DNA of 48,704 nt from a bacterium (GCA_043823645.1 JBDRAO010000024.1:1-48704); one strand, 5' to 3'; positions 24,603 to 48,704 are shown, numbered from the stretch's first letter. Notes: generated from the sequence alone by a model not told the origin. Numbers and translations are program-made.

Positions 24603-25947
24603 CTTTTTCAAAAAAAACCTCAATGCGCCCAACTTGCTCTGTTTGCTGGTCTTTCTTTTGCCTCTGGGTACCGCCAAGCATTTTGTAGGCAGTTACTCCT
24701 ATATAAACGGCTACCTGGTGGATTATTTGGTGCCGGCTTTTTATGTCAGTGAGTTTCTGGTTTGGGGGGTAATAATTCAATTAGGAATTAAGAATTACGC
24801 CTGCCTGCCGGCAAGGCAGGAATTACGAATTAGAAGACCTCTCTGGCAGAAAAGGTTACTTACAAGCTTCGCAGTTTTGGTTTTTCTGGCAGTTAACTTT
24901 GCTCAGGCCGCAAACCCTATTGCCTGGGTCTATCGTGCCTACCGTTTGCTGGAGGCTTTTTTGCTTTTTAAGGCGGCTTCGGCGCTGTTAAAAGACAGCG
25001 CTGTTTTTAAACGCGTGGCCCTCTTTTTTGCCGGAGGGGTGCTTTGGGCCGGAGTTTTGGGTTTGGCGCAGTTTGTGCTCCAAAGGCCGCTTTTTGGTTA
25101 TTTGCCTTTGGGAGAGAGCCAATTCCAACTCTACAATCCGGCGGTGGCCAAAATTGAGCTTTGGGGCAAGGTACTGGTGCGAGCCTACAGCGGTTTTCCC
25201 CACCCGAATATCCTAGCGGGGTACTTGGTGGTGGGAGTTTTATTAACTCTGGAAACGCTAGTTTCCAGTCGTAAGCTTCCCCCGCCCGCCGCGCCTGAGC
25301 GCAGCGATGGCGGGCGCGGTAGGAGACTTAAGTTACCTAGGTTTCCTAGGTTACTTACGAGCTTCGTAGGGGTTACTTTGGTGGTAGGGGTGGTAGCGCT
25401 TGTGGCAACTTTTTCACGGACAGGGGTGGTGGCTTTGGTAGTGGGAGTTTTGCTGTGGTTGTGTTATAGGTCCTATAAGACCCATAAGACCTATGTCGCA
25501 ATTGCTGGGGTACTTTTGCTACTGTTGGTGGGGCTAGCTCTAACCCCCCGCTTTGCAGAAAGCCTTACGGAGCGGGTGAGCCTAGCCAAAATGGCTTTTG
25601 AAGTTTGGGCCAGGCATCCCATTATTGGCGTCGGGCTTAACAGTTTCTCAAACTTTACAGCTCCTTTTAAGTTCCAACCGGTACACAATATCTTTCTTTT
25701 GATCTTTTCAGAAGCCGGCCTTTTGGGGGGTGTTTTATTTTTGGGTTTTCTTGCAAAAATCTTGCGGCGGGTAGTATTTCCCGCCGGACTAATGCTTATT
25801 CCTTTGCTTTTTTTCGGGCTTTTTGACCACTTTTTACTCACTACTTATCAGGGAATCACTCTTGGTAGTTTGACGCTGGCAATGGTTGTGACATATACTA
25901 AATACAATGGCAGAACAGATACAGGCGGCTCCTCCAAAACCGTTTGA
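24583..25947 (+). CDS. O-antigen ligase/polymerase-like (Wzy_C) membrane protein
   Basis: 454 aa, polytopic. FSRTGVVALVVGVLL and GVGLNSFSNF are typical of the O-antigen-ligase family loop. Carries several repeat insertions. Confidence 0.6.
   Translation: MLSNSSNFFKKNLNAPNLLCLLVFLLPLGTAKHFVGSYSYINGYLVDYLVPAFYVSEFLVWGVIIQLGIKNYACLPARQELRIRRPLWQKRLLTSFAVLVFLAVNFAQAANPIAWVYRAYRLLEAFLLFKAASALLKDSAVFKRVALFFAGGVLWAGVLGLAQFVLQRPLFGYLPLGESQFQLYNPAVAKIELWGKVLVRAYSGFPHPNILAGYLVVGVLLTLETLVSSRKLPPPAAPERSDGGRGRRLKLPRFPRLLTSFVGVTLVVGVVALVATFSRTGVVALVVGVLLWLCYRSYKTHKTYVAIAGVLLLLLVGLALTPRFAESLTERVSLAKMAFEVWARHPIIGVGLNSFSNFTAPFKFQPVHNIFLLIFSEAGLLGGVLFLGFLAKILRRVVFPAGLMLIPLLFFGLFDHFLLTTYQGITLGSLTLAMVVTYTKYNGRTDTGGSSKTV
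24786..24833. repeat. Composite Rep-D arm + Rep-C GC palindrome + Rep-D arm, in frame in the O-antigen ligase
   Basis: aattaagaattacg-cctgcctgccggcaaggcagg-aattacgaattag encodes IKNYACLPARQELRIR. Confidence 0.7.
25465..25494. repeat. Rep-B copy 2 (ataggtcctataagacccataagacctat), in frame (YRSYKTHKTY)
   Basis: Terminal inverted arms ataggtc/gacctat. Same family as 9751-9789 and 37993-38026. Confidence 0.65.
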
Positions 25948-33163: not shown

Positions 33164-33167
33164 TAGT

Positions 33168-33232
33168 CAATTAACAATTACGAGTTACAAATTACGAATG
33201 AATTAAAATCCTATGAATTATAATTCGTAATT
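33168..33232. repeat. Rep-D solo hairpin element
   Basis: caattaacaattacgagttacaaattacgaatga ... attcgtaatt. The left arm is about 90% identical by eye to 46307-46340 and 47438-47471. Confidence 0.7.
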
Positions 33233-38374: not shown

Positions 38375-38452
38375 GAATTACGAATTACGAATGACGAATT
38401 ACGAATGAAAAATGCAATTAATTCGTAATTGTTAATTCGTAATTGTTAATTA
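38375..38452. repeat. Rep-D solo hairpin element in the tpiA-pgk spacer, with remnant mini-ORF
   Basis: aattacgaattacgaatgacgaattacgaATGAAAAATGCAATTAATTCGTAAttgttaattcgtaattgttaatt. The mini-ORF at 38405-38428 reads MKNAINS*. Confidence 0.75.
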
Positions 38453-41190: not shown

Positions 41191-42222
41191 TCAACTTGTC
41201 AAGCTTTTCACCGCCTGCGCCCCGGCAATCTTGGAGCTTAGCCGTCCAAAGCCTTGCGCCGCCTCATCCGACTTAGCCTTGGCGTTGGTAATGTGCTTTT
41301 GCAAAATGGTAAAATCATCTTCAAACTTTTCCGCCTCTTTTTTAATGGCTTGCAATGATTGCAAAATAAGTTTCGCCTTTTCACCCACCTGCTGTTTTTC
41401 AAACCCAATCATAATAACTCGCAAAAAGGAAAAAAATTGGTTGGGGGAGACAGCCGTGACTCTTTTTTGGTAGGCATACTCCAAAAGCTCGGGAAAAGTG
41501 TTGTTTATTTCATATGCCACCGGTTCAGAAGGGATATACATAATGGCAAAATCTACCGTGCCCTCGGCCGGCAAAATGTACTTGTTGGCAATGTCGCGAA
41601 TATGCTTGCGGCAATCATTTTCAAACTGTTTTCCGGCCACCCCCTTTTCCTTACCGGAGGTGTTAATGTAGCGTCTAAAAGATTCCATGGGAAACTTGGC
41701 GTCAATGGGGATTTTGCCCTCTCCGGTTTCAATTAAAGCGTCTACTCGCTCGCCGCTTGAAAACTGGTATTGCAGGGAAAACCGGCCGTGGGGGATGGTC
41801 TCTTTTAAAAGGTCGTTTAAAATTTGCTCGCCAATATTGCCCCTGAGTTTGGGAGCCTGTAGGACCTGATAGACATCTTTAATGTAACCGGTGGTCTCAG
41901 CCAAGCCTCCCAGCTCTTTTTGCACTCCGGCAATCACCGAGGCGGCCTTATCGAGCCGTTCGTTGACCGATTTGTTGCTCTGCTGTAAATGCTCCACCAG
42001 GTTTTTTTGAGAGGAGGATAGCTGTTTGTCTAGGGTTTCGCGAGTCCTATCGAGCGAGCTTTGCATATTGGAAAGCCACTCGGTGAGCACTTTTTGGTTT
42101 TGATCGTCCGAAGGTTTTAGCACCTCTTGCAGTTTCTTGTAGAGTAGTATTAGTCCCCCTGCCAAGGACAGCAGTGTGACAAAGATGCCAAAAACCAGTA
42201 GATTACTCATATGAGTAATCAT
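41191..42222 (-). CDS. rmuC: DNA recombination protein RmuC
   Basis: N-terminal TM helix, a long coiled coil, LRGNIGEQILNDLL and VDFAIMYIPSE. The start may be the internal ATG at 42210 (MSNLLVF). Confidence 0.8.
   Translation of the reverse strand: MITHMSNLLVFGIFVTLLSLAGGLILLYKKLQEVLKPSDDQNQKVLTEWLSNMQSSLDRTRETLDKQLSSSQKNLVEHLQQSNKSVNERLDKAASVIAGVQKELGGLAETTGYIKDVYQVLQAPKLRGNIGEQILNDLLKETIPHGRFSLQYQFSSGERVDALIETGEGKIPIDAKFPMESFRRYINTSGKEKGVAGKQFENDCRKHIRDIANKYILPAEGTVDFAIMYIPSEPVAYEINNTFPELLEYAYQKRVTAVSPNQFFSFLRVIMIGFEKQQVGEKAKLILQSLQAIKKEAEKFEDDFTILQKHITNAKAKSDEAAQGFGRLSSKIAGAQAVKSLTS
42201..42220. promoter_or_regulatory. Perfect 20-bp palindrome gattactcatatgagtaatc containing both divergent start codons
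   Basis: The central CATATG gives lepA its ATG at 42211 and the rmuC internal ATG at 42208-42210 (minus). Both strands read ATGAGTAAT (MSN). Confidence 0.5.
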
Positions 42223-43992
42223 ATCAGAAACTTTGCCATAATTTCACACATTGATCACGGCAAGTCCACCCTGGCCGATAGGTTTTTGGAGCTGACCCAA
42301 ACGGTGGGTAAAAAAGAAATGCATGCGCGTTTTTTGGACAGCATGGCCCTGGAGCAGGAAAAAGGGATTACTATTAAGCTCAAGGCTGTTAGAATGAGCT
42401 GTCAAATGTCGGACATCAGTCATCCGACATCCGACAGGTTTATTCTTAATTTAATAGACACGCCTGGACATGTGGATTTTTCCTACGAAGTCTCGCGCGC
42501 CCTGGCCGCCTGTGAGGGCGCTCTTTTGCTGGTAGATGCCACTCAGGGCATTCAGGCGCAAACCTTAGCAGTGCTTTATAAGGCGCTCGATTTAAATTTA
42601 ACTATTATTCCGGTAATCAATAAGGTAGATTTGCCTACGGCAGGAAGCGGATTGGCCGTTTTAGAACAGCAAATGCGCGATTTGCTGGGAGGGTATGGGG
42701 GTGAGGTTTCCAAAATATCGGCCAAGACCGGTGGGGGAGTAGAAGGGCTTTTACAAAGGATTGTAAAAGAAATCCCAAGTCCAAAATCCCTGCCTTGCCG
42801 GCAGGCAGGCAAATATCAAAACAAATTGAGAGCCTTAATTTTCGATAGTTACTACGACCAGTACAAAGGGGTGGTGGCTCTGGTAAGGGTTTTTGGGGGT
42901 ACCATTGAGGGTAGTAGTCCTCTTTATGCTGTAGGGTCAAAAACCGAGTTTGAACCTTTGGAGCTGGGGTTTTTTACGCCCCACTCCAAAAAAACCGCCT
43001 TAATTTCAGCTGGTGAGGTGGGCTATATTGCCACCGGTTTAAAAGATATCTCTAAGGTTCGAGTGGGGGATACCATTGTTTCCTTTCCCCTTAACCCCCT
43101 TTCCCCCCTTACCCCTCTCCCCGGCTACAGGGCGCCGCAGGCTATGGTTTTTTTAAGCCTCTACCCTAAAGACGCGGCTCGTTTTGGAGACCTCAAAAAG
43201 GCTCTGGAACACCTAAATTTAACCGATGCGGCCCTTACAGTGGAGCCGGAAAACACGCCCGCCTTGGGGGTGGGTTTTAAGGTGGGCTTTTTGGGGCTTT
43301 TGCACGCTGAAATAACCGTGGAACGCTTAAAGCGGGAATACGGCTTAGATTTAATTAGCACCATCCCCCAGGTGGCTCATAAAAAAGTTGAGGGAGATAT
43401 TTACGAGCCAAAGGTAAAGGGGCAAATTTTTACGCCTCGGCGGTACTTGGGAGCGGTGCTAAAATTAACCGATTCGGCCCGCGGGGAGTTTTTAGATACC
43501 CGCTATTTAAGTGAGGATAGCGTTTTGGTAGAGGCAAAACTGCCGCTTTCGGAGCTCGTGGCCAATTTTTACGATCGTCTCAAGTCACTCACTTCAGGTT
43601 ATGCCAGTTTGAGTTACGAGTTTTTGGGGTTTGAAAAGGAAGATTTGGTACTCCTTGATATTTTGGTACACGGGGAAAAGGTGGCCGCCCTTTCTCAAAT
43701 TGTGCCACGAGCGAGGGCCTACGCCATTGGCAGTCAATTAATAAAAAAATTAAAAGATACCATCCCCAGGGAGCAGTTTAAGGTGGCTTTGCAGGCGGCC
43801 ATTGGGGGCAAGATTATTGCCCGAGAAACTTTGCCGGCTTTTAGAAAAGATGTCACCGCCAAGCTTTACGGGGGAGACCGCACCCGCCGCGATAAATTAC
43901 TCAAAAAGCAGGCCAGGGGAAAAAAGAGGATGGGGGCTGAGGGCAGGGTAAACCTTTCCCCGGAAGCTATTTTTAAATTAGTCTCCTCGTGA
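42211..43992 (+). CDS. lepA: Elongation factor 4 (LepA)
   Basis: NFAIISHIDHGKSTLADR, IDTPGHVDF, NKVDL and the C-terminal LYGGDRTRRDKLLKKQ. Confidence 0.95.
   Translation: MSNHIRNFAIISHIDHGKSTLADRFLELTQTVGKKEMHARFLDSMALEQEKGITIKLKAVRMSCQMSDISHPTSDRFILNLIDTPGHVDFSYEVSRALAACEGALLLVDATQGIQAQTLAVLYKALDLNLTIIPVINKVDLPTAGSGLAVLEQQMRDLLGGYGGEVSKISAKTGGGVEGLLQRIVKEIPSPKSLPCRQAGKYQNKLRALIFDSYYDQYKGVVALVRVFGGTIEGSSPLYAVGSKTEFEPLELGFFTPHSKKTALISAGEVGYIATGLKDISKVRVGDTIVSFPLNPLSPLTPLPGYRAPQAMVFLSLYPKDAARFGDLKKALEHLNLTDAALTVEPENTPALGVGFKVGFLGLLHAEITVERLKREYGLDLISTIPQVAHKKVEGDIYEPKVKGQIFTPRRYLGAVLKLTDSARGEFLDTRYLSEDSVLVEAKLPLSELVANFYDRLKSLTSGYASLSYEFLGFEKEDLVLLDILVHGEKVAALSQIVPRARAYAIGSQLIKKLKDTIPREQFKVALQAAIGGKIIARETLPAFRKDVTAKLYGGDRTRRDKLLKKQARGKKRMGAEGRVNLSPEAIFKLVSS
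42788..42809. repeat. Rep-C GC palindrome in frame in lepA (SLPCRQAG)
   Basis: ccctgccttgccggcaggcagg is the same core as 24800-24820, 46696-46714 and 47497-47516. Confidence 0.7.
43081..43122. repeat. Rep-A copy 5 (in frame in lepA; FPLNPLSPLTPLP)
   Basis: tcctttccccttaaccccctttccccccttacccctctcccc. Confidence 0.65.
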
Positions 43993-44830: not shown

Positions 44831-44845
44831 TATTTGACTGAGTAT

Positions 44846-44889
44846 TCATAATTCATAATTGTTAATTGTTAATTGTTAATTGTTAATTG
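44846..44889. repeat. Rep-D-related tandem 7-mer (gttaatt x5) in the rpmH-rnpA spacer
   Basis: tcataattcataattgttaattgttaattgttaattgttaattg. Confidence 0.7.
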
Positions 44890-45236
44890 ATACCGTGGCT
44901 CTTTCCAAGGAATACATTTTAAAAGACAAATACTATTTCAAACGAGTGCGGCGCCTGGGCAAAACCTTTTCTACCCCTTTGTTTTTTTTGAATATTGCCC
45001 CCTGTAAAGATGCCCGAGAGCTAAAATTTGGCCTCATTGTGACCACCAAAGTTGACAAACGGGCAGTGGAACGCAACCGGATTAGGCGGGCTTTAAGTGA
45101 AGCGGTTAGAGTAAGACTGCCAAAGCTCAATAGGGGATACCATGTGGTAATAGTTGCCAAAGCGGCGGCCGTAGGCAAAAGTTACCAGGATTTCGATGCC
45201 TGTTTTGCCAAACTCTTGCCAAAGACACCTCTCTAG
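44880..45236 (+). CDS. rnpA: Ribonuclease P protein component
   Basis: FGLIVTTKVDKRAVERNRIRRALSEAVR is the RNR motif region. Follows rpmH as in most bacteria. The start is uncertain: TTG 44880 lies in the repeat, and GTG 44895 is an alternative. Confidence 0.8.
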   Translation: MLIDTVALSKEYILKDKYYFKRVRRLGKTFSTPLFFLNIAPCKDARELKFGLIVTTKVDKRAVERNRIRRALSEAVRVRLPKLNRGYHVVIVAKAAAVGKSYQDFDACFAKLLPKTPL

Positions 45237-46309
45237 CCCTTTTTCCTCCCCCCTTTCTTTTTCTTTTTAAGTACCACATGCAAGGGAAAAAATTCAAAAT
45301 AATCGTTTTCGTCAAACCAGCCGCATTTGATATTATAGAGGCGAATGGTGGTCAGGCGGGAAAGAGCCAGAGCGTATAAAGTGAGCTGGTCAATGGGCTT
45401 TTGCTTTCTGGCCGAAGGTTTATAATCTAAAATGTGCAAACAACCATTTCTCATTTGCAATATATCAATATGTCCCGTTAGGGCTTCTTCATCTTCCAAA
45501 CTCAGGGGGATTTCAAACCCCAGCTCATTTTGATAGTGTAAAATGTCCTCTTTAGTTAAAAGCACCGGCAGTTCGGTAGCAATGGTCACCGAGTCGTTTA
45601 CCAGCATATATTCTTGTAGAATCTCGTGCCTTAGTTTATTGTTGCCCACCGCTTGCAAGACAAAATTGGCCATATGGCAGGCGGCGTTTTTAGTGGGCTT
45701 AATCCTTACTTGGTCTAAATTAAAGGTATTTTTGTAATAAGAGGCTCTCTTTTGGGCGGTTCTAAACTTTTGGTGGGGGCACTCGTCAAACACCAGCTCC
45801 AAAAACTCGCGAATGGGGCGCAGGGTGTAGTGGGAAAAGTTTTGCTCCAGCTGGCATCGGAGTTTGGCGCGGTGGTATTTGAAATTATACACCTGCTCGT
45901 GGTGCAGTCTGGCCTCAGCAATGATTTCCTTTGGTTTATAGTTGAGTTTTACAAAGTCTCTCATTCTGGTAAAGGGGATAAAACCGGCATAACTTTTAAG
46001 CCAGTTGGTAATGTTTTGGGGGCTGACTGTGACACCGTAGTGTTGGCTTACCTTTTGGGCGGATTCGTCCAGGGAGTTTAGGCGGTTATACAAGGTAATG
46101 CAATCTAAGATTACCCTTAAAGGGAAAGTTTTGTGTTTGGTGACTCCGGGGGTAAACTTTTTTTGACACAGTTTGCAAAAGTAAACCTGCACCTCCTCGT
46201 GCTTTTTGGATCTAATGCCGGTTTTAACCACTTTACTGCCCGAGCAAAAGGGGCACAAAGCGGCGGTTTTTATAATGCCAACTTCCTGTTTATCAAATAA
46301 CACAATCAA
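45233..46309 (-). CDS. Zinc-ribbon + PD-(D/E)XK (RecB/Cas4-like) nuclease-domain protein
   Basis: 358 aa with a TTG start. N-terminal CPFCSGSKVVKTG...YFCKLCQKKF is an IS1-InsA-like C4 ribbon. C-terminal GHIDILQMRNGCLHILDYKPSARKQKPIDQLTLYALAL parallels the helicase nuclease motif GSIDRVD...IIDYKTG...QLTIYALA. Confidence 0.55.
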   Translation of the reverse strand: MIVLFDKQEVGIIKTAALCPFCSGSKVVKTGIRSKKHEEVQVYFCKLCQKKFTPGVTKHKTFPLRVILDCITLYNRLNSLDESAQKVSQHYGVTVSPQNITNWLKSYAGFIPFTRMRDFVKLNYKPKEIIAEARLHHEQVYNFKYHRAKLRCQLEQNFSHYTLRPIREFLELVFDECPHQKFRTAQKRASYYKNTFNLDQVRIKPTKNAACHMANFVLQAVGNNKLRHEILQEYMLVNDSVTIATELPVLLTKEDILHYQNELGFEIPLSLEDEEALTGHIDILQMRNGCLHILDYKPSARKQKPIDQLTLYALALSRLTTIRLYNIKCGWFDENDYFEFFPLHVVLKKKKKGGRKKG

Positions 46310-46340
46310 TTAACAATTACGAATGTACAATTACGAATTA
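46307..46340. repeat. Rep-D long arm (caattaacaattacgaatgtacaattacgaatta)
   Basis: 32 of 34 positions identical to 47438-47471. Supplies the last codons and the stop (..INS*) of the 46331-46687 gene. Confidence 0.8.
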
Positions 46341-46687
46341 ATTTTGGATGTTTTTTGAATAGCGCCAATAATTTTACAAAGTTCCTCACAATCGTTCAAG
46401 AGAGACTCTGCCGCCCTTTCGTCAACATATTGAGAATCCTTCAACAACCTTATCCAATATCTCGTTTCTCTAGTTTCTTTGTACGCTATTGACATTTTAG
46501 ATACAAAATCCTTTTTTGATTGGGCGCCAATAGCTTCCTCAACATTAGCGCCAATTCCGGTACCGCTCCGCAAAACCTGTTTGGACAGAACAAACTCTCT
46601 TTTCTTTTCACTAAGAAAACGGTACAGTTTGATGACTCTCAAAGAAAATTGGTAGCTCTTATTCAGTATTAGGTTATCTTTTTTCAT
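46331..46687 (-). CDS. Four-helix-bundle protein (23S rRNA IVS protein family)
   Basis: 118 aa. SKQVLRSGTGIGANVEEAIGAQSKKDF...ETRYW. The ATG and stop are both contributed by Rep-D arms. Confidence 0.8.
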   Translation of the reverse strand: MKKDNLILNKSYQFSLRVIKLYRFLSEKKREFVLSKQVLRSGTGIGANVEEAIGAQSKKDFVSKMSIAYKETRETRYWIRLLKDSQYVDERAAESLLNDCEELCKIIGAIQKTSKINS

Positions 46688-46790
46688 TCGTAATTCCTGC
46701 CTGCCGGCAGGCAGACGTAATTGTTAATTCGTAATTGTCTCCGTTGTTTTCCCCCATTCGTAATTCGTAATTGTTAATTCGTAATTGTCT
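46685..46790. repeat. Rep-D arms + Rep-C GC palindrome (46696-46714) between two four-helix-bundle genes
   Basis: cattcgtaattcctgcctgccggcaggcagacgtaattgttaattcgtaattg ... cattcgtaattcgtaattgttaattcgtaattg. Confidence 0.8.
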
Positions 46791-47253
46791 TGAAGGCCCT
46801 TTCCCACGCCCGCTTTAAGTTTAATATCTTTCTTTTTTGTATTTGGTACTGGTGCAGGAATTTTACTAAAGATTCTTTGGTTTCAGCGTTTTCCGAAGCG
46901 GCCACCAAGAAATCCAGGCGGGAGATAATGTCGGCCATTACCTGCGAGGCCTGTTCCAGCTCGTTAAGCCCCCGGTCAATATCTACAAACTTTTCGCCAT
47001 AGCTTACGCTAATGAGCCGAGGAGGGGATTGGGCCAGTTTTTTAAGTTCGCTGTGTTCTTCCTGCAATTCTTTGGGGAGTTTGAGCTTAAAGATATCCGA
47101 GGCCAGTTGAGTGGTTTTCTGGTAAACCTCCAAGTCGCGAAAAGATTTGATGGCCGTTCTCACGCGGTACTTTTTGAATTCCCGCTTGTAATATTTTTTT
47201 GGGGCCGGGTAGGTCATTGGGTTCAGTATAACCATTTCTGCCAGCTTTGCCAA
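46774..47253 (-). CDS. Divergent four-helix-bundle-like protein
   Basis: 159 aa, all-helical. FRDLEVYQKTTQLASDIFKL matches the family N-terminal helix (f.dL.vwq.a..l), but the central SxGANxxEG motif is not preserved. The last codons (TITN*) are encoded by Rep-D. Confidence 0.45.
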   Translation of the reverse strand: MAKLAEMVILNPMTYPAPKKYYKREFKKYRVRTAIKSFRDLEVYQKTTQLASDIFKLKLPKELQEEHSELKKLAQSPPRLISVSYGEKFVDIDRGLNELEQASQVMADIISRLDFLVAASENAETKESLVKFLHQYQIQKRKILNLKRAWERAFKTITN

Positions 47254-47437
47254 TTTCAGTCAAAATTGGCACTTTTGGTGGTGGTATCAAGCGCCCCAGC
47301 TTCCTATGGCGTTTTTGCTTTAGCTAAAGGAGATAACCCCTTCCATCTCCCTGGTTTTAGGATCAAAATCTCCCGAATTTTGGGGAGAATAGGGGAGCGC
47401 CCAAAACTCGAGAGATGAAATCTGAGGCTATGGGACT

Positions 47438-47516
47438 CAATTAAGAATTACGAATGTACAATTACGAATGAAATACAAAGAAATTAATTCGTAATTCCTG
47501 CCTGCCGGCGAGGCAG
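47438..47516. repeat. Rep-D solo hairpin with remnant mini-ORF + Rep-C GC palindrome
   Basis: caattaagaattacgaatgtacaattacgaATGAAATACAAAGAAATTAATTCGTAAttcctgcctgccggcgaggcag. The mini-ORF at 47468-47494 reads MKYKEINS*. Confidence 0.8.
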
Positions 47517-48704
47517 TCACAAACTGGCGCTAGGGGAAGCTTGAGGAGTAGGCCCGTTTGCCGGTGGGGCAGGGGAGAGTACCGGCTCTATATTGGCATT
47601 TTCTTCTAGTATTTTGAGTCTTTCTTCAATGCGGTCAAGCCTTTCGGTGGTGGCTTTTTCAAACTCTCTAAAGGTATCATTGAGCTCCAAAAGTTGTAGG
47701 TGTTCCTCTTGCACCGCCTTCACCAACAAGGTGGCAAACCTGGAATAATTTATCCCCATGTACCCATCAGATTTATTGGTATATACAATTCCCGGGAATA
47801 TCTCTTGCACTTCTTGAGCTATTAGTCCTATGTCTCTTTTTCCGGTACTGTCGTTAATCCAGTGGAAGGAATATGGCTTGAGTTTAAGTATCCCCTCTAA
47901 AGTACCCTCCAGAGGCTCTAGACTATTCTTGACACGAAGATCAGAGGTAGAGGTAGTTAAATCCCCATCATCTTCAATATACAGATCCACTGGAGAAGAA
48001 GCCCCACTCCCCACTATCAGTCTTATATTACCGGCTACCTCTAATTTTTGATTTGGGCCCGTTGTCCCGATGCCGACGTTGCCCGCACTTGACATAAACA
48101 TATAAGTAGAACCACCGGCTTGGAAAGCCAAATTCTTACCGGCTCCACTGCCAAAATAAGCTTCACCTAGTGTCCCGTTATATCCAAATACCGCTCTACC
48201 TTGAGTAATTCTTATTAAATTACTATCAGAGACAAGACCAGCTTCATTAAGCGATATATTTCCATTAACTTCCAATTTATAGGTTGGATTCGTCGTCCCG
48301 ATGCCGACGTTGCCGGTTGTTGTAATCCTCATTTTCTCCGAAGAACCTGGACTAAACAAAATACTACCCGAATTGTTAGAATGTGCTCGCAGATCAACAT
48401 CGACTCCACTTAGAAATAAACCATTCGAAGTATACGAAGAAGCAATCACACCGCCCCCACTTGGTACTACCAGTTGACCAAGATAGGAGATATTAGTAGT
48501 TGTGCCTCCCGAATTGACAAATGAGGCAGTAGCAGGTTGACCGCTACTTTGGTTTTGTCTCACAGTCAAGATTGGATTCGAGCTTGAACCAATGACGTGC
48601 AGTACCGAATCTGGTCCCGTCGTTCCGATGCCGACGTTGCCTGAAATTATCATCCCTCCCGATGGTCCCGCTATTCCCGAATATGTTCCCGCTGATATGG
48701 CTCC
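47517..48704 (-). CDS. Tail-fibre-like repeat protein with C-terminal S74 intramolecular-chaperone domain (5' end beyond the window)
   Basis: The frame stays open to base 48704. GNVGIGTT(G/N)P repeats (DNA motif cccgatgccgacgttgcc x3). C-terminal DLRVKNS...LKPYSFHW...DIGLIAQEVQEIFP...GINYS is typical of the endosialidase-chaperone (peptidase S74) domain, followed by a coiled coil. Confidence 0.7.
   Translation of the reverse strand, partial: GAISAGTYSGIAGPSGGMIISGNVGIGTTGPDSVLHVIGSSSNPILTVRQNQSSGQPATASFVNSGGTTTNISYLGQLVVPSGGGVIASSYTSNGLFLSGVDVDLRAHSNNSGSILFSPGSSEKMRITTTGNVGIGTTNPTYKLEVNGNISLNEAGLVSDSNLIRITQGRAVFGYNGTLGEAYFGSGAGKNLAFQAGGSTYMFMSSAGNVGIGTTGPNQKLEVAGNIRLIVGSGASSPVDLYIEDDGDLTTSTSDLRVKNSLEPLEGTLEGILKLKPYSFHWINDSTGKRDIGLIAQEVQEIFPGIVYTNKSDGYMGINYSRFATLLVKAVQEEHLQLLELNDTFREFEKATTERLDRIEERLKILEENANIEPVLSPAPPANGPTPQASPSASL

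Follow-up and report, generated by a model that had tools for sequence, protein, structure and literature searches.

A four-helix-bundle gene between inverted heptad arrays: a candidate relative, outside ribosomal RNA, of 23S intervening sequences

The origin of the open reading frame (ORF)-containing intervening sequences (IVS) of bacterial ribosomal RNA, and the role of the S23p or four-helix-bundle (4HB) protein that they encode, have been open since the early 1990s. The 23S IVS of Coxiella burnetii has a 28-bp terminal stem and an S23p ORF of family PF05635 that is reported to be decaying; three tandem GACAGAT heptamers, whose copy number differs among strains, lie directly before the S23p ATG, and the 5' cut of RNase III falls at the start of the first repeat (PMC4990558). 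Here we describe an element of similar build that lies between protein genes, at positions 46303 to 46791 of a 48.7-kb contig from a metagenome-assembled genome (MAG; JBDRAO010000024.1, the whole of which is referred to as the window). With a probability of about 0.6, we read this element as a compact IVS-type stem-loop gene cassette, in which a 4HB gene matching PF05635 and TIGR02436 is the cargo of inverted arrays of the heptad AATTACG. The best homologues of several genes of the window are found in genomes of the Patescibacteria, or candidate phyla radiation (CPR), from which we infer that the window is probably of CPR origin.

Papers on cas loci, on diversity-generating retroelements (DGRs) and on rRNA insertions in CPR bacteria name the protein family and not the arms. 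Cyanobacterial short tandemly repeated repetitive (STRR) sequences are intergenic heptamer repeat arrays like those described here. Repeats of the heptamer TAACTGA occur in Beggiatoaceae, cyanobacteria and Bacteroidetes, in a report that makes no mention of four-helix, S23 or IVS (PMC4679880). In the searchable literature, which leaves out subscription journals and so makes an earlier description possible, we found no account of heptad-arm packaging of 4HB genes outside rRNA, and the arm sequence used as a text string returned unrelated primers only. The class-level pattern of armed 4HB cassettes thus appears not to have been described before in that literature.

A four-helix-bundle gene between inverted heptad arrays

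The product of the gene matches PF05635 (23S_rRNA_IVP) with E = 1.4e-28 and 99.7 bits, against a curated cut-off of 33.8, and TIGR02436 ("four helix bundle protein") with E = 3.5e-32 and 110.9 bits, against a cut-off of 24, while residues 3-117 match a solved structure, PDB 2rld (BT_0352, 5 chains), with E = 6.7e-33. The gene is strongly conserved, with 4377 protein homologues and identities of 61-77% across phyla, and an exact-sequence look-up found no record of the window protein itself. PF05635 is homologous to the Avd protein of DGRs; the match of the window protein to the Avd profiles (bAvd, PF22296 and NF033474) is weak and under their cut-offs (6.5e-05 and 8.5e-05). No transposase domain was found in the protein with Pfam or NCBIfam profiles, and the 4HB gene is the sole ORF of the unit, whose parts are as follows, with the evidence for each in brackets.

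46303..46791, minus strand: whole inserted cassette, from the upstream heptad arrays with their GC palindrome through the 4HB gene to the downstream arms (alignment to contigs L181 and L182)
46755..46790, minus strand: distal upstream heptad array, three AATTACG units on the coding strand (inverted repeat I1; RNA fold)
46715..46740, minus strand: second upstream heptad array, two units (direct repeat D2; inverted repeats I5, I12 and I15)
46696..46714, no strand: GC palindrome cctgcctgccggcaggcag, 19 nt, nested in the upstream array (sequence; local hairpin in the fold)
46683..46695, minus strand: proximal upstream unit, running into the start codon over 46695-46687, aattacgaATG (sequence; motif count)
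46331..46687, minus strand: 4HB gene, 118 aa, 23S_rRNA_IVP family (matches to PF05635, TIGR02436 and PDB 2rld)
46307..46340, minus strand: downstream arms, two inverted units around TGTACA (sequence; repeat analysis)

In its coding orientation the gene reads ...ggcaggaattacgaATGAAAAAAGAT ... AAAATTAATTCGTAAttgtacattcgtaattgttaattg, and the downstream arms overlap its last codons and stop (ATTAATTCGTAA), so that a preliminary description of this DNA was right to place both the ATG and the stop inside inverted arms. The aattacgaATG type of junction recurs at four of the loci compared below (L014, L023, L034 and L069). A short spacer separates the distal array from the second; the distal array encodes the final codons and stop (KTITN*) of the upstream gene, ORF159, and pairs with the downstream arms as inverted repeat I1, over 28 nt with 93% complementarity. 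This repeat is the outer stem in both the minimum free energy (MFE) and the centroid fold of the cassette RNA, where distal array and downstream arms form an interrupted stem of ~35 bp that encloses the second array, the GC hairpin and the whole ORF; none of 100 shuffles folds as well (MFE -125.6 kcal/mol, z -2.76). Of the arm motif AATTACGAA the window holds 18 copies where 0.55 would be expected, a count that none of 100 shuffles reached, and these copies are confined to five places (24821, 33190-33232, 38376-38444, 46315-46786 and 47446-47496). The GC palindrome stands where it had been reported, at 46696-46714 and, as an imperfect copy, at 47497-47516, with further copies at 24800-24819 and 42789-42808. 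Its nesting in the cassette, in the order aattacg, palindrome, gaattacgaa, is seen also at 24793-24829. The copy at 42789-42810 (CCTGCCTTGCCGGCAGGCAGG) is without arms and in frame in a 593-aa ORF (42211-43992), which by eye we take to resemble LepA/EF4.

Arms that are AT-rich and intergenic, with a GC hairpin just past the stop of one gene (47497-47516), might be chance repeats or ordinary intrinsic terminators unrelated to the gene between them. We see virtually no prospect of this, as it is refuted by the enrichment of AATTACGAA, by the same oriented heptads flanking homologues in unrelated phyla, and by a terminator scan that found three sites against 2.5 expected, all elsewhere and none at arms or GC palindromes. 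The arms have no GC-rich stem with a T-run, and the cassette region is not enriched in promoters or terminators. Structured RNAs described in Rfam do not account for the arms either: at gathering threshold no curated covariance model matches over the element, and the sole match in the window is a DUF3800-II RNA (RF02961) at positions 1-70 of the plus strand (61.3 bits, gathering 43.2), cut by the 5' end of the contig. A sub-threshold match to PK-repBA at 47367-47491 of the plus strand (26.8 bits, gathering 45, E = 0.002), which overlaps a gene-less hairpin described below, is probably due to chance.

Empty sites and armed genes in other bacteria

Two contigs, L181 and L182, each from a separate sample and with 77-83% DNA identity to the window, were reached through homologues of ORF159. 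Positions 82-762 of L181 align to 47435-46792 of the window and positions 792-1408 to 46302-45686, leaving 489 nt in the window (46303-46791) where L181 has 29 nt; L182 gives the same result. In both contigs the homologue of ORF159 and a PD-(D/E)XK gene overlap, and arms are absent. As aligned, the 489-bp block is an insertion relative to L181 and L182. The genes on its two sides are the following.

46774..47253, minus strand: ORF159, upstream host gene (90 homologues; paired with a PD-(D/E)XK gene in relatives)
45233..46309, minus strand: downstream host gene, a protein with a Zn-ribbon and a PD-(D/E)XK domain (PF12705, 2.4e-06; alignment to L181)

ORF159 likely starts at an ATG near 47217, and the downstream gene probably at a GTG at 46303 that would be equivalent to the ATG of L181. 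In relatives, homologues of ORF159 are always followed by the PD-(D/E)XK gene, and to judge from this gene order ORF159 is a resident gene belonging to a conserved pair and not a second cargo gene. It had been taken for one: two 34-mers at 46307-46340 and 47438-47471, which we also find identical at 32 of 34 positions, were said to bracket a 1.13-kb unit with two 4HB genes, the second divergent and with an arm-encoded TITN* end. The end is indeed arm-encoded, but this is because the insertion replaced the native tail of ORF159 (LPKKGPTQLDVI in L181) with the arm codons KTITN, and since the junctions with L181 and L182 delimit the insert to 46303-46791, the 1.13-kb block is not a unit. ORF159 may nevertheless be a divergent 4HB-like protein. 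Its match to PF05635 is weak (14.4 bits, E = 0.044, over the N-terminal 35 positions), a precomputed PF05635 hit exists for 3 of the 90 homologues, and its AlphaFold2 (AF2) model (pLDDT 83.7) has PDB entries 2gsc and 2rld as its top two fold matches, with TM scores to the target of 0.77-0.82 and weak E values of 0.05-0.4; alignment of ORF159 or its family to a narrow 4HB alignment with hhalign was negative.

A larger set of orthologous sites is provided by Tenacibaculum and Lutibacter, in which a cassette sits between trpD and trpC. We surveyed this spacer in 80 metagenome contigs (TrpC 77-87% identical) and four loci from GTDB, four of the total being unscored because they lie at contig ends. 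Among the 80 scored spacers, 14 hold a cassette, 61 have no arms, some being as short as TAAAATG, and five hold only downstream-arm remnants (for example L160, L129/L130 and L158). One armless spacer, L122, keeps the last ~ten codons of the 4HB gene, and L041 is another partly deleted derivative. On the TrpC tree, at least 11 state changes are needed. Two near-identical strains, L110 and L106, have flanks that by eye are ~99% identical and differ by a cassette of ~417 nt; among the 23 nt that this cassette replaces are six codons of a small ORF. The claims that gene and arms form one inserted unit, that relatives are polymorphic for the insertion, and that gene-less and partly deleted derivatives exist have therefore all held.

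The small insert at the ORF159-like/PD-(D/E)XK junction varies: the window has the 4HB cassette there, L171-L174 have a PDDEXK_3 gene, L175-L180 have a toxin-antitoxin pair of NTP_transf_2/HepT type, and L181 and L182 have nothing. The junction has the look of a hotspot for small genes of a selfish or defensive nature. In L172 the PDDEXK_3 gene is enclosed by 33-nt inverted repeats with 85% complementarity (922-954 and 1612-1644), which begin at the stop of the upstream gene and finish at the start of the downstream gene; on this arrangement, the PDDEXK_3 gene would be a second kind of cargo in a stem-loop cassette.

Armed 4HB genes are widespread. By taking one genome per GTDB species we obtained 80 loci, with proteins 61-75% identical to that of the window, and four metagenome loci brought the sample to 84. 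The GTDB loci come from Bacteroidota, Verrucomicrobiota, Planctomycetota, Gemmatimonadota, Cyanobacteriota, Chloroflexota, Acidobacteriota, Desulfobacterota, Pseudomonadota, Patescibacteria, KSB1, Latescibacterota, Cloacimonadota and others, and nearly all loci examined have arms on the gene, as had been predicted. An exact TTACGAA lies within 150 nt upstream in 53 of the 84 loci and an exact TTCGTAA within 150 nt downstream in 57, with both in 44, and heptads in the wrong orientation are found in just five loci on each side. Exact heptamers reach a density of 10.5 per kb adjoining the gene against 0.59 per kb far away, and median period-7 (lag-7) scores of the two flanks are 0.66 and 0.54, where control windows give 0.37. 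The upstream flank shares 7-mers with the reverse complement of the downstream flank in 80 of 83 loci (more than 12 phyla), with a mean of 9.1 shared 7-mers within a locus against 5.4 +/- 0.36 for permuted pairings, and inverted matches of at least 14 nt between the flanks were found in 87 loci (median 28 nt). Variants of the arms change on both sides together (upstream/downstream AATTAGG/CCTAATT, ACTAATT/AATTAGT and AGTTACG/CGTAACT), and arm sequence thus covaries between the two sides of a locus. Of 73 upstream ORFs, 68 are co-directional with the cassette, as are 57 of 76 downstream ORFs. Cassettes often fill the whole spacer; the upstream gene then ends on a stop contributed by the arms, and the following gene begins right beside them. 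Taken with the trpD-trpC survey, the cassettes are co-directional in operon spacers, polymorphic at orthologous sites, and decay to arm-only remnants.

More distant homologues are flanked by other heptads. Arms were found in 10 of 12 distant (plasmid or phage) homologues, and the plasmid 4HB genes concerned have 35-53% identity. Heptad arms are also present on cassettes of Chlorohelix, Pseudanabaena and Anabaena. Plasmid examples are listed here.

L165, Euhalothece plasmid: ACCAGTG upstream, CACTGGT downstream (13 units downstream)
L166, Nostoc plasmid: AATTCAA upstream, TTGAATT downstream
L167, Bernardetia plasmid: TAGTGAT, 17 units upstream
L168, Treponema plasmid: GAAAGNG upstream, CTCTCCG downstream
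L183, Monoglobus plasmid: arms of AATTAGG type

As in the window, the last codons and stop of the 4HB gene usually fall within the first downstream heptads (cgtaattcgtaa and cctaattcctaa), where cgt aat tcg taa reads RNS* and cct aat tcc taa reads PNS*. This intimate overlap of arms and gene could mean that the arms act in cis, either as binding sites for the 4HB pentamer or as a slippage-prone heptad tract. Translation of the 4HB gene and of adjoining genes would then be controlled by a start codon hidden in the stem or by a register that shifts with the number of units. The start codon is next to or within the final upstream unit, upstream units outnumber downstream ones and so permit alternative registers, the unit length of seven is not divisible by three, arms often contain the stops of host genes, and heptad number differs among Coxiella strains. 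Such control would leave unexplained why arms and gene come and go as one unit and why gene-less hairpins persist, and as an account of the element we hold it to be improbable, though it is compatible with a stem-loop cassette and not exclusive of it.

Several further features of these loci were observed. Very long arrays are present in L009, L053, L032, L167 and L165, with 26 exact TTACGAA units over ~360 nt upstream of the gene in L009, indicating expansion by slippage. By eye, the cassettes of L010, L004, L018, L075 and L044 appear to lie beside or between tRNA genes, that is, in stable-RNA operons that are processed anyway. Other GC-rich palindromes (GGCGCC..GGCGCC; GGCGCGCC..GGCGCGCC) flank or interrupt the arms in L040, L044, L019 and L072 (Opitutales and other Verrucomicrobiota), and a GC hairpin beside the arms may be a recurrent accessory feature. 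In HsdM-HsdS-like genes from three phyla (L021, L028 and L048, ~1400-2050), a cassette is embedded in the 3' end with its arms read in frame (EITNYELEIT); ahead of the 4HB ATG stands a duplicate, since diverged, of the C-terminal tail of the host protein, and the original tail forms a short downstream ORF. Plasmid cassettes also lie beside cas1 or cas2, between hsdS and hsdR, or between helicase and DNA methylase genes (L185, L188, L183, L169 and L184); their position near cas1/cas2 may explain the earlier "cas-associated" label of the family.

Gene-less copies in the window

Arms without the 4HB gene, and related arrays, occur at other places in the window.

47438..47496, no strand: solo hairpin with the outer arms of the full copy and a 12-15-nt loop (D1 94% and D3 96% to the full copy; fold)
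47497..47516, no strand: imperfect GC palindrome directly past the stop of gene 47517-48653 (D11)
38376..38450, no strand: solo hairpin filling the spacer of two co-directional genes (fold z -5.7 and -6.2)
33167..33232, no strand: solo hairpin filling the 74-nt spacer of two co-directional genes (D6 family; fold weakly above shuffles, z -1.1)
24786..24833, plus strand: module of arm unit, GC palindrome and arm unit, in frame in a Wzy_C (O-antigen ligase) ORF (homologue alignment)
44845..44890, no strand: one-sided array of related heptads, (TCATAAT)2(TGTTAAT)4, lacking an inverted counterpart, between rpmH-like and rnpA-like ORFs (D4)

The terminus TCAATTAAC is common to four copies, the hairpins and the full copy (D6), and the solo hairpins are plausibly gene-less derivatives of the cassette. 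The first of them, with its palindrome (47436-47516), is absent from L181. These hairpins had been read as empty copies that retain the first and last codons of the gene (MK...INS*), which would make the element autonomous, its solos internal deletions of the kind known as miniature inverted-repeat transposable elements (MITEs), and the 1.13-kb block a composite with two cargo genes. The solo at 47438-47516 does match the full copy in both arms and the palindrome, its loop TACAAAGAAAT agrees with the YKET codons of the gene at 12 of 13 nt (I21), and partial-deletion intermediates exist elsewhere (L041, L122 and L160). However, the ATG (in ACGAATG) and AATTCGTAA are intrinsic to the heptads (CGTAATTCGTAA reads RNS*) and occur in the arm consensus even far from genes, and loops of suitable length give mini-ORFs by default because the arms themselves encode ATG and stop. 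The arm ATG is in frame with the arm stop in only two of the three solos. Three mini-ORFs had been listed; two use the arm ATG, while that at 33213-33230 (MNYNS*) does not, the arm ATG at 33197 giving MN*. On the plus strand, the full copy and the solo at 47438-47516 are collinear (D1 and D3), which puts the mini-ORF of the solo on the strand opposite to the gene. A test for vestiges of the gene in the three solo loops gave one suggestive case, that of TACAAAGAAAT (shuffle p ~0.03), which is unconvincing after multiple testing. The retained codons are thus arm sequence; ORF159 belongs to the host and has a conserved partner gene; and although the copies do share termini, the cargo has no transposase domain and no target duplication was found, so that an autonomous element with MITE-like derivatives is in our judgement rather improbable.

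The module in the O-antigen ligase had been described as the same combination of arm and palindrome, in frame. It is in frame, as a 19-residue insertion relative to the closest homologue, P0212, and to other homologues, but its two units have the same orientation and do not form a hairpin of arms. A syntenic contig, L189, is without the module; no clusters of arms were seen along 20 kb of it, and it ends before the solos at 33167 and 38376. Further along the same ORF, at ~25280-25350, are ~28 more extra residues relative to the closest homologue, where the DNA contains a GC-rich palindrome and an inverted repeat, AAGTTACCTAGG / CCTAGGTTACTT, which point to one more in-frame insert of a small palindromic kind. 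The window also contains C-rich units of ~9 nt (CCCCCTTAC-like) in five clusters (16067, 24295, 39744, 40105 and 43086) and the palindrome CCAACTATTCGAATAGTTGG at three sites (6319, 14234 and 20247). Overall, the preliminary description is largely borne out in what it observed and partly supported in its interpretation, being right in its core, a polymorphic, IVS-like cargo of a hairpin element, and wrong or unproven in several details.

Proposed mechanism and comparison with known systems

Under the stem-loop reading, the cassette would be transcribed by read-through from the upstream gene, and its arms would pair into a duplex of ~28-35 bp around the ORF. RNase III might cut this duplex, by analogy with the IVS of Coxiella and Leptospira; such cleavage would release or insulate the ORF-bearing loop and make the insertion tolerable in rRNA, tRNA operons and mRNA spacers. 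The solo hairpins of the window would be gene-less derivatives, and spread would occur by horizontal transfer and recombination rather than by a transposase.

Several observations weigh against this proposal. Arm mismatches comprise 54 G·U and 53 A·C pairs and 185 transversions; there is no G·U excess, and selection for pairing in sense RNA is therefore not indicated, so that complementarity may be kept at the DNA level. No target-site duplication was found between the window and L181 or between L110 and L106, the inserts replacing 29 nt and 23 nt, respectively. Several Flavobacterium and Tenacibaculum species share the same cassette site, by which many copies would be old and vertically inherited rather than actively mobile. 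Finally, a minority of loci (L061, L065 and L169) have arms in opposite or direct orientation, and the only two phage homologues found, both distant and in unannotated records, have no heptad arms.

In an alternative model, the arms function as DNA. The arrays would be extruded as hairpins or cruciforms on single-stranded DNA and serve as substrates for movement or homogenisation, by way of a host hairpin-processing enzyme, template switching or recombination into solo landing pads, with the pentameric, Avd-like 4HB protein as a nucleic-acid-binding accessory factor. The lack of G·U bias, the termini TCAATTAAC... common to four copies, the homology of PF05635 to Avd, and solos with the same arms that could be recombination targets all fit this model; in the solo at 47438 the loop has the reverse orientation with respect to the outer features, as exchange between inverted arms predicts. 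Arms and protein also co-inherit: proteins with the same arm type are 65.1% identical against 62.1% for different types, a difference reached in 0 of 1000 permutations. Arm type also follows host GC content, so that this association is not decisive as proof of specific recognition by the protein. Set against the model are the lack of any recombinase, reverse transcriptase or nuclease consistently linked to the cassette, the missing target duplication, empty sites that are wholly armless and so require no landing-pad hairpin, and the many insertions that are ancient and stable. On balance we regard DNA-level arms as unlikely.

A broader proposal extends the stem-loop cassette to a domain-wide class of transposase-free mobile cassettes, in which recognition of the heptad arms, as RNA or single-stranded DNA, by the cassette's own pentameric 4HB protein would aid maintenance or spread of the cassette; the 23S IVS with an ORF, many cyanobacterial and Bacteroidota heptamer arrays, and the 4HB genes in restriction-modification and CRISPR loci would then all be one type of element. 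We put this forward as doubtful. If IVS are the rRNA-resident members of a larger heptad-armed family, comparative genomics and many cultivable bacteria, among them Flavobacterium, Tenacibaculum, Nostoc and Tannerella, could be used to study them. A single explanation would then cover some of the so far unexplained bacterial heptamer arrays, and the presence of 4HB genes inside operons, restriction-modification genes and cas loci would be accounted for. Annotation would call for caution, as C-terminal tails, mini-ORFs and in-frame insertions encoded by such arms would be by-products of insertion.

Other known systems share parts of this architecture. Like integron cassettes, as judged by reading the sequences, the 4HB cassette is compact, holds one promoterless gene, has the orientation of its neighbours, lies between imperfect inverted repeats and is found in many contexts, but it has no integrase or array context and carries periodic heptads on both sides in place of an attC with R and L boxes. 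With MITEs and repetitive extragenic palindromes or their mosaics (REP/BIME) it shares short, dispersed palindromic copies in the spacers of co-directional genes, occasional in-frame insertion into coding sequence, and long and short versions with common termini (D1, D3 and D6). It differs from them in that the long copy has no transposase or RAYT-type enzyme and no target-site duplication, and its arms are conserved across phyla together with the cargo, which is atypical of lineage-specific REPs or MITEs. The Avd protein of DGRs has a homologous four-helix-bundle fold, whereas no reverse transcriptase, template or variable repeats lie near the 4HB gene of the window; the two armless phage homologues may or may not be Avd-like. 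The heptamer arrays of cyanobacteria and Bacteroidota (PMC4679880; STRR) are likewise tandem, intergenic 7-nt units, some of them long, but are described mainly as direct repeats, while those of the cassettes are inverted around one gene family.

The closest system is the 23S IVS. The window contains no rRNA, and conserved 23S strings are absent from it and from loci L001-L164; the link to IVS therefore rests on the protein family, the architecture and the Coxiella paper. The window element differs in lying between protein genes and not in helix 25 or 45, in its heptad (AATTACG against GACAGAT in Coxiella), and in a 4HB protein that is strongly conserved where the Coxiella ORF is reported to be decaying; RNase III excision, shown for rRNA IVS, is a prediction for the window element. 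In both, the cargo belongs to PF05635, the ORF lies inside terminal inverted repeats with a stem of ~28 bp, and the distribution is sporadic and, for IVS, horizontally transferred (PMC4990558). The tandem heptamers that run up to the start of the Coxiella ORF, at the RNase III cut site, have their counterpart in the AATTACG units that reach the ATG in the window, and strengthen the likeness first proposed. By this analogy the window element would be a non-rRNA variant of the IVS kind, built like an IVS without being one by location, which suggests that ribosomal IVS are one case of a much wider, apparently undescribed family of cassettes.

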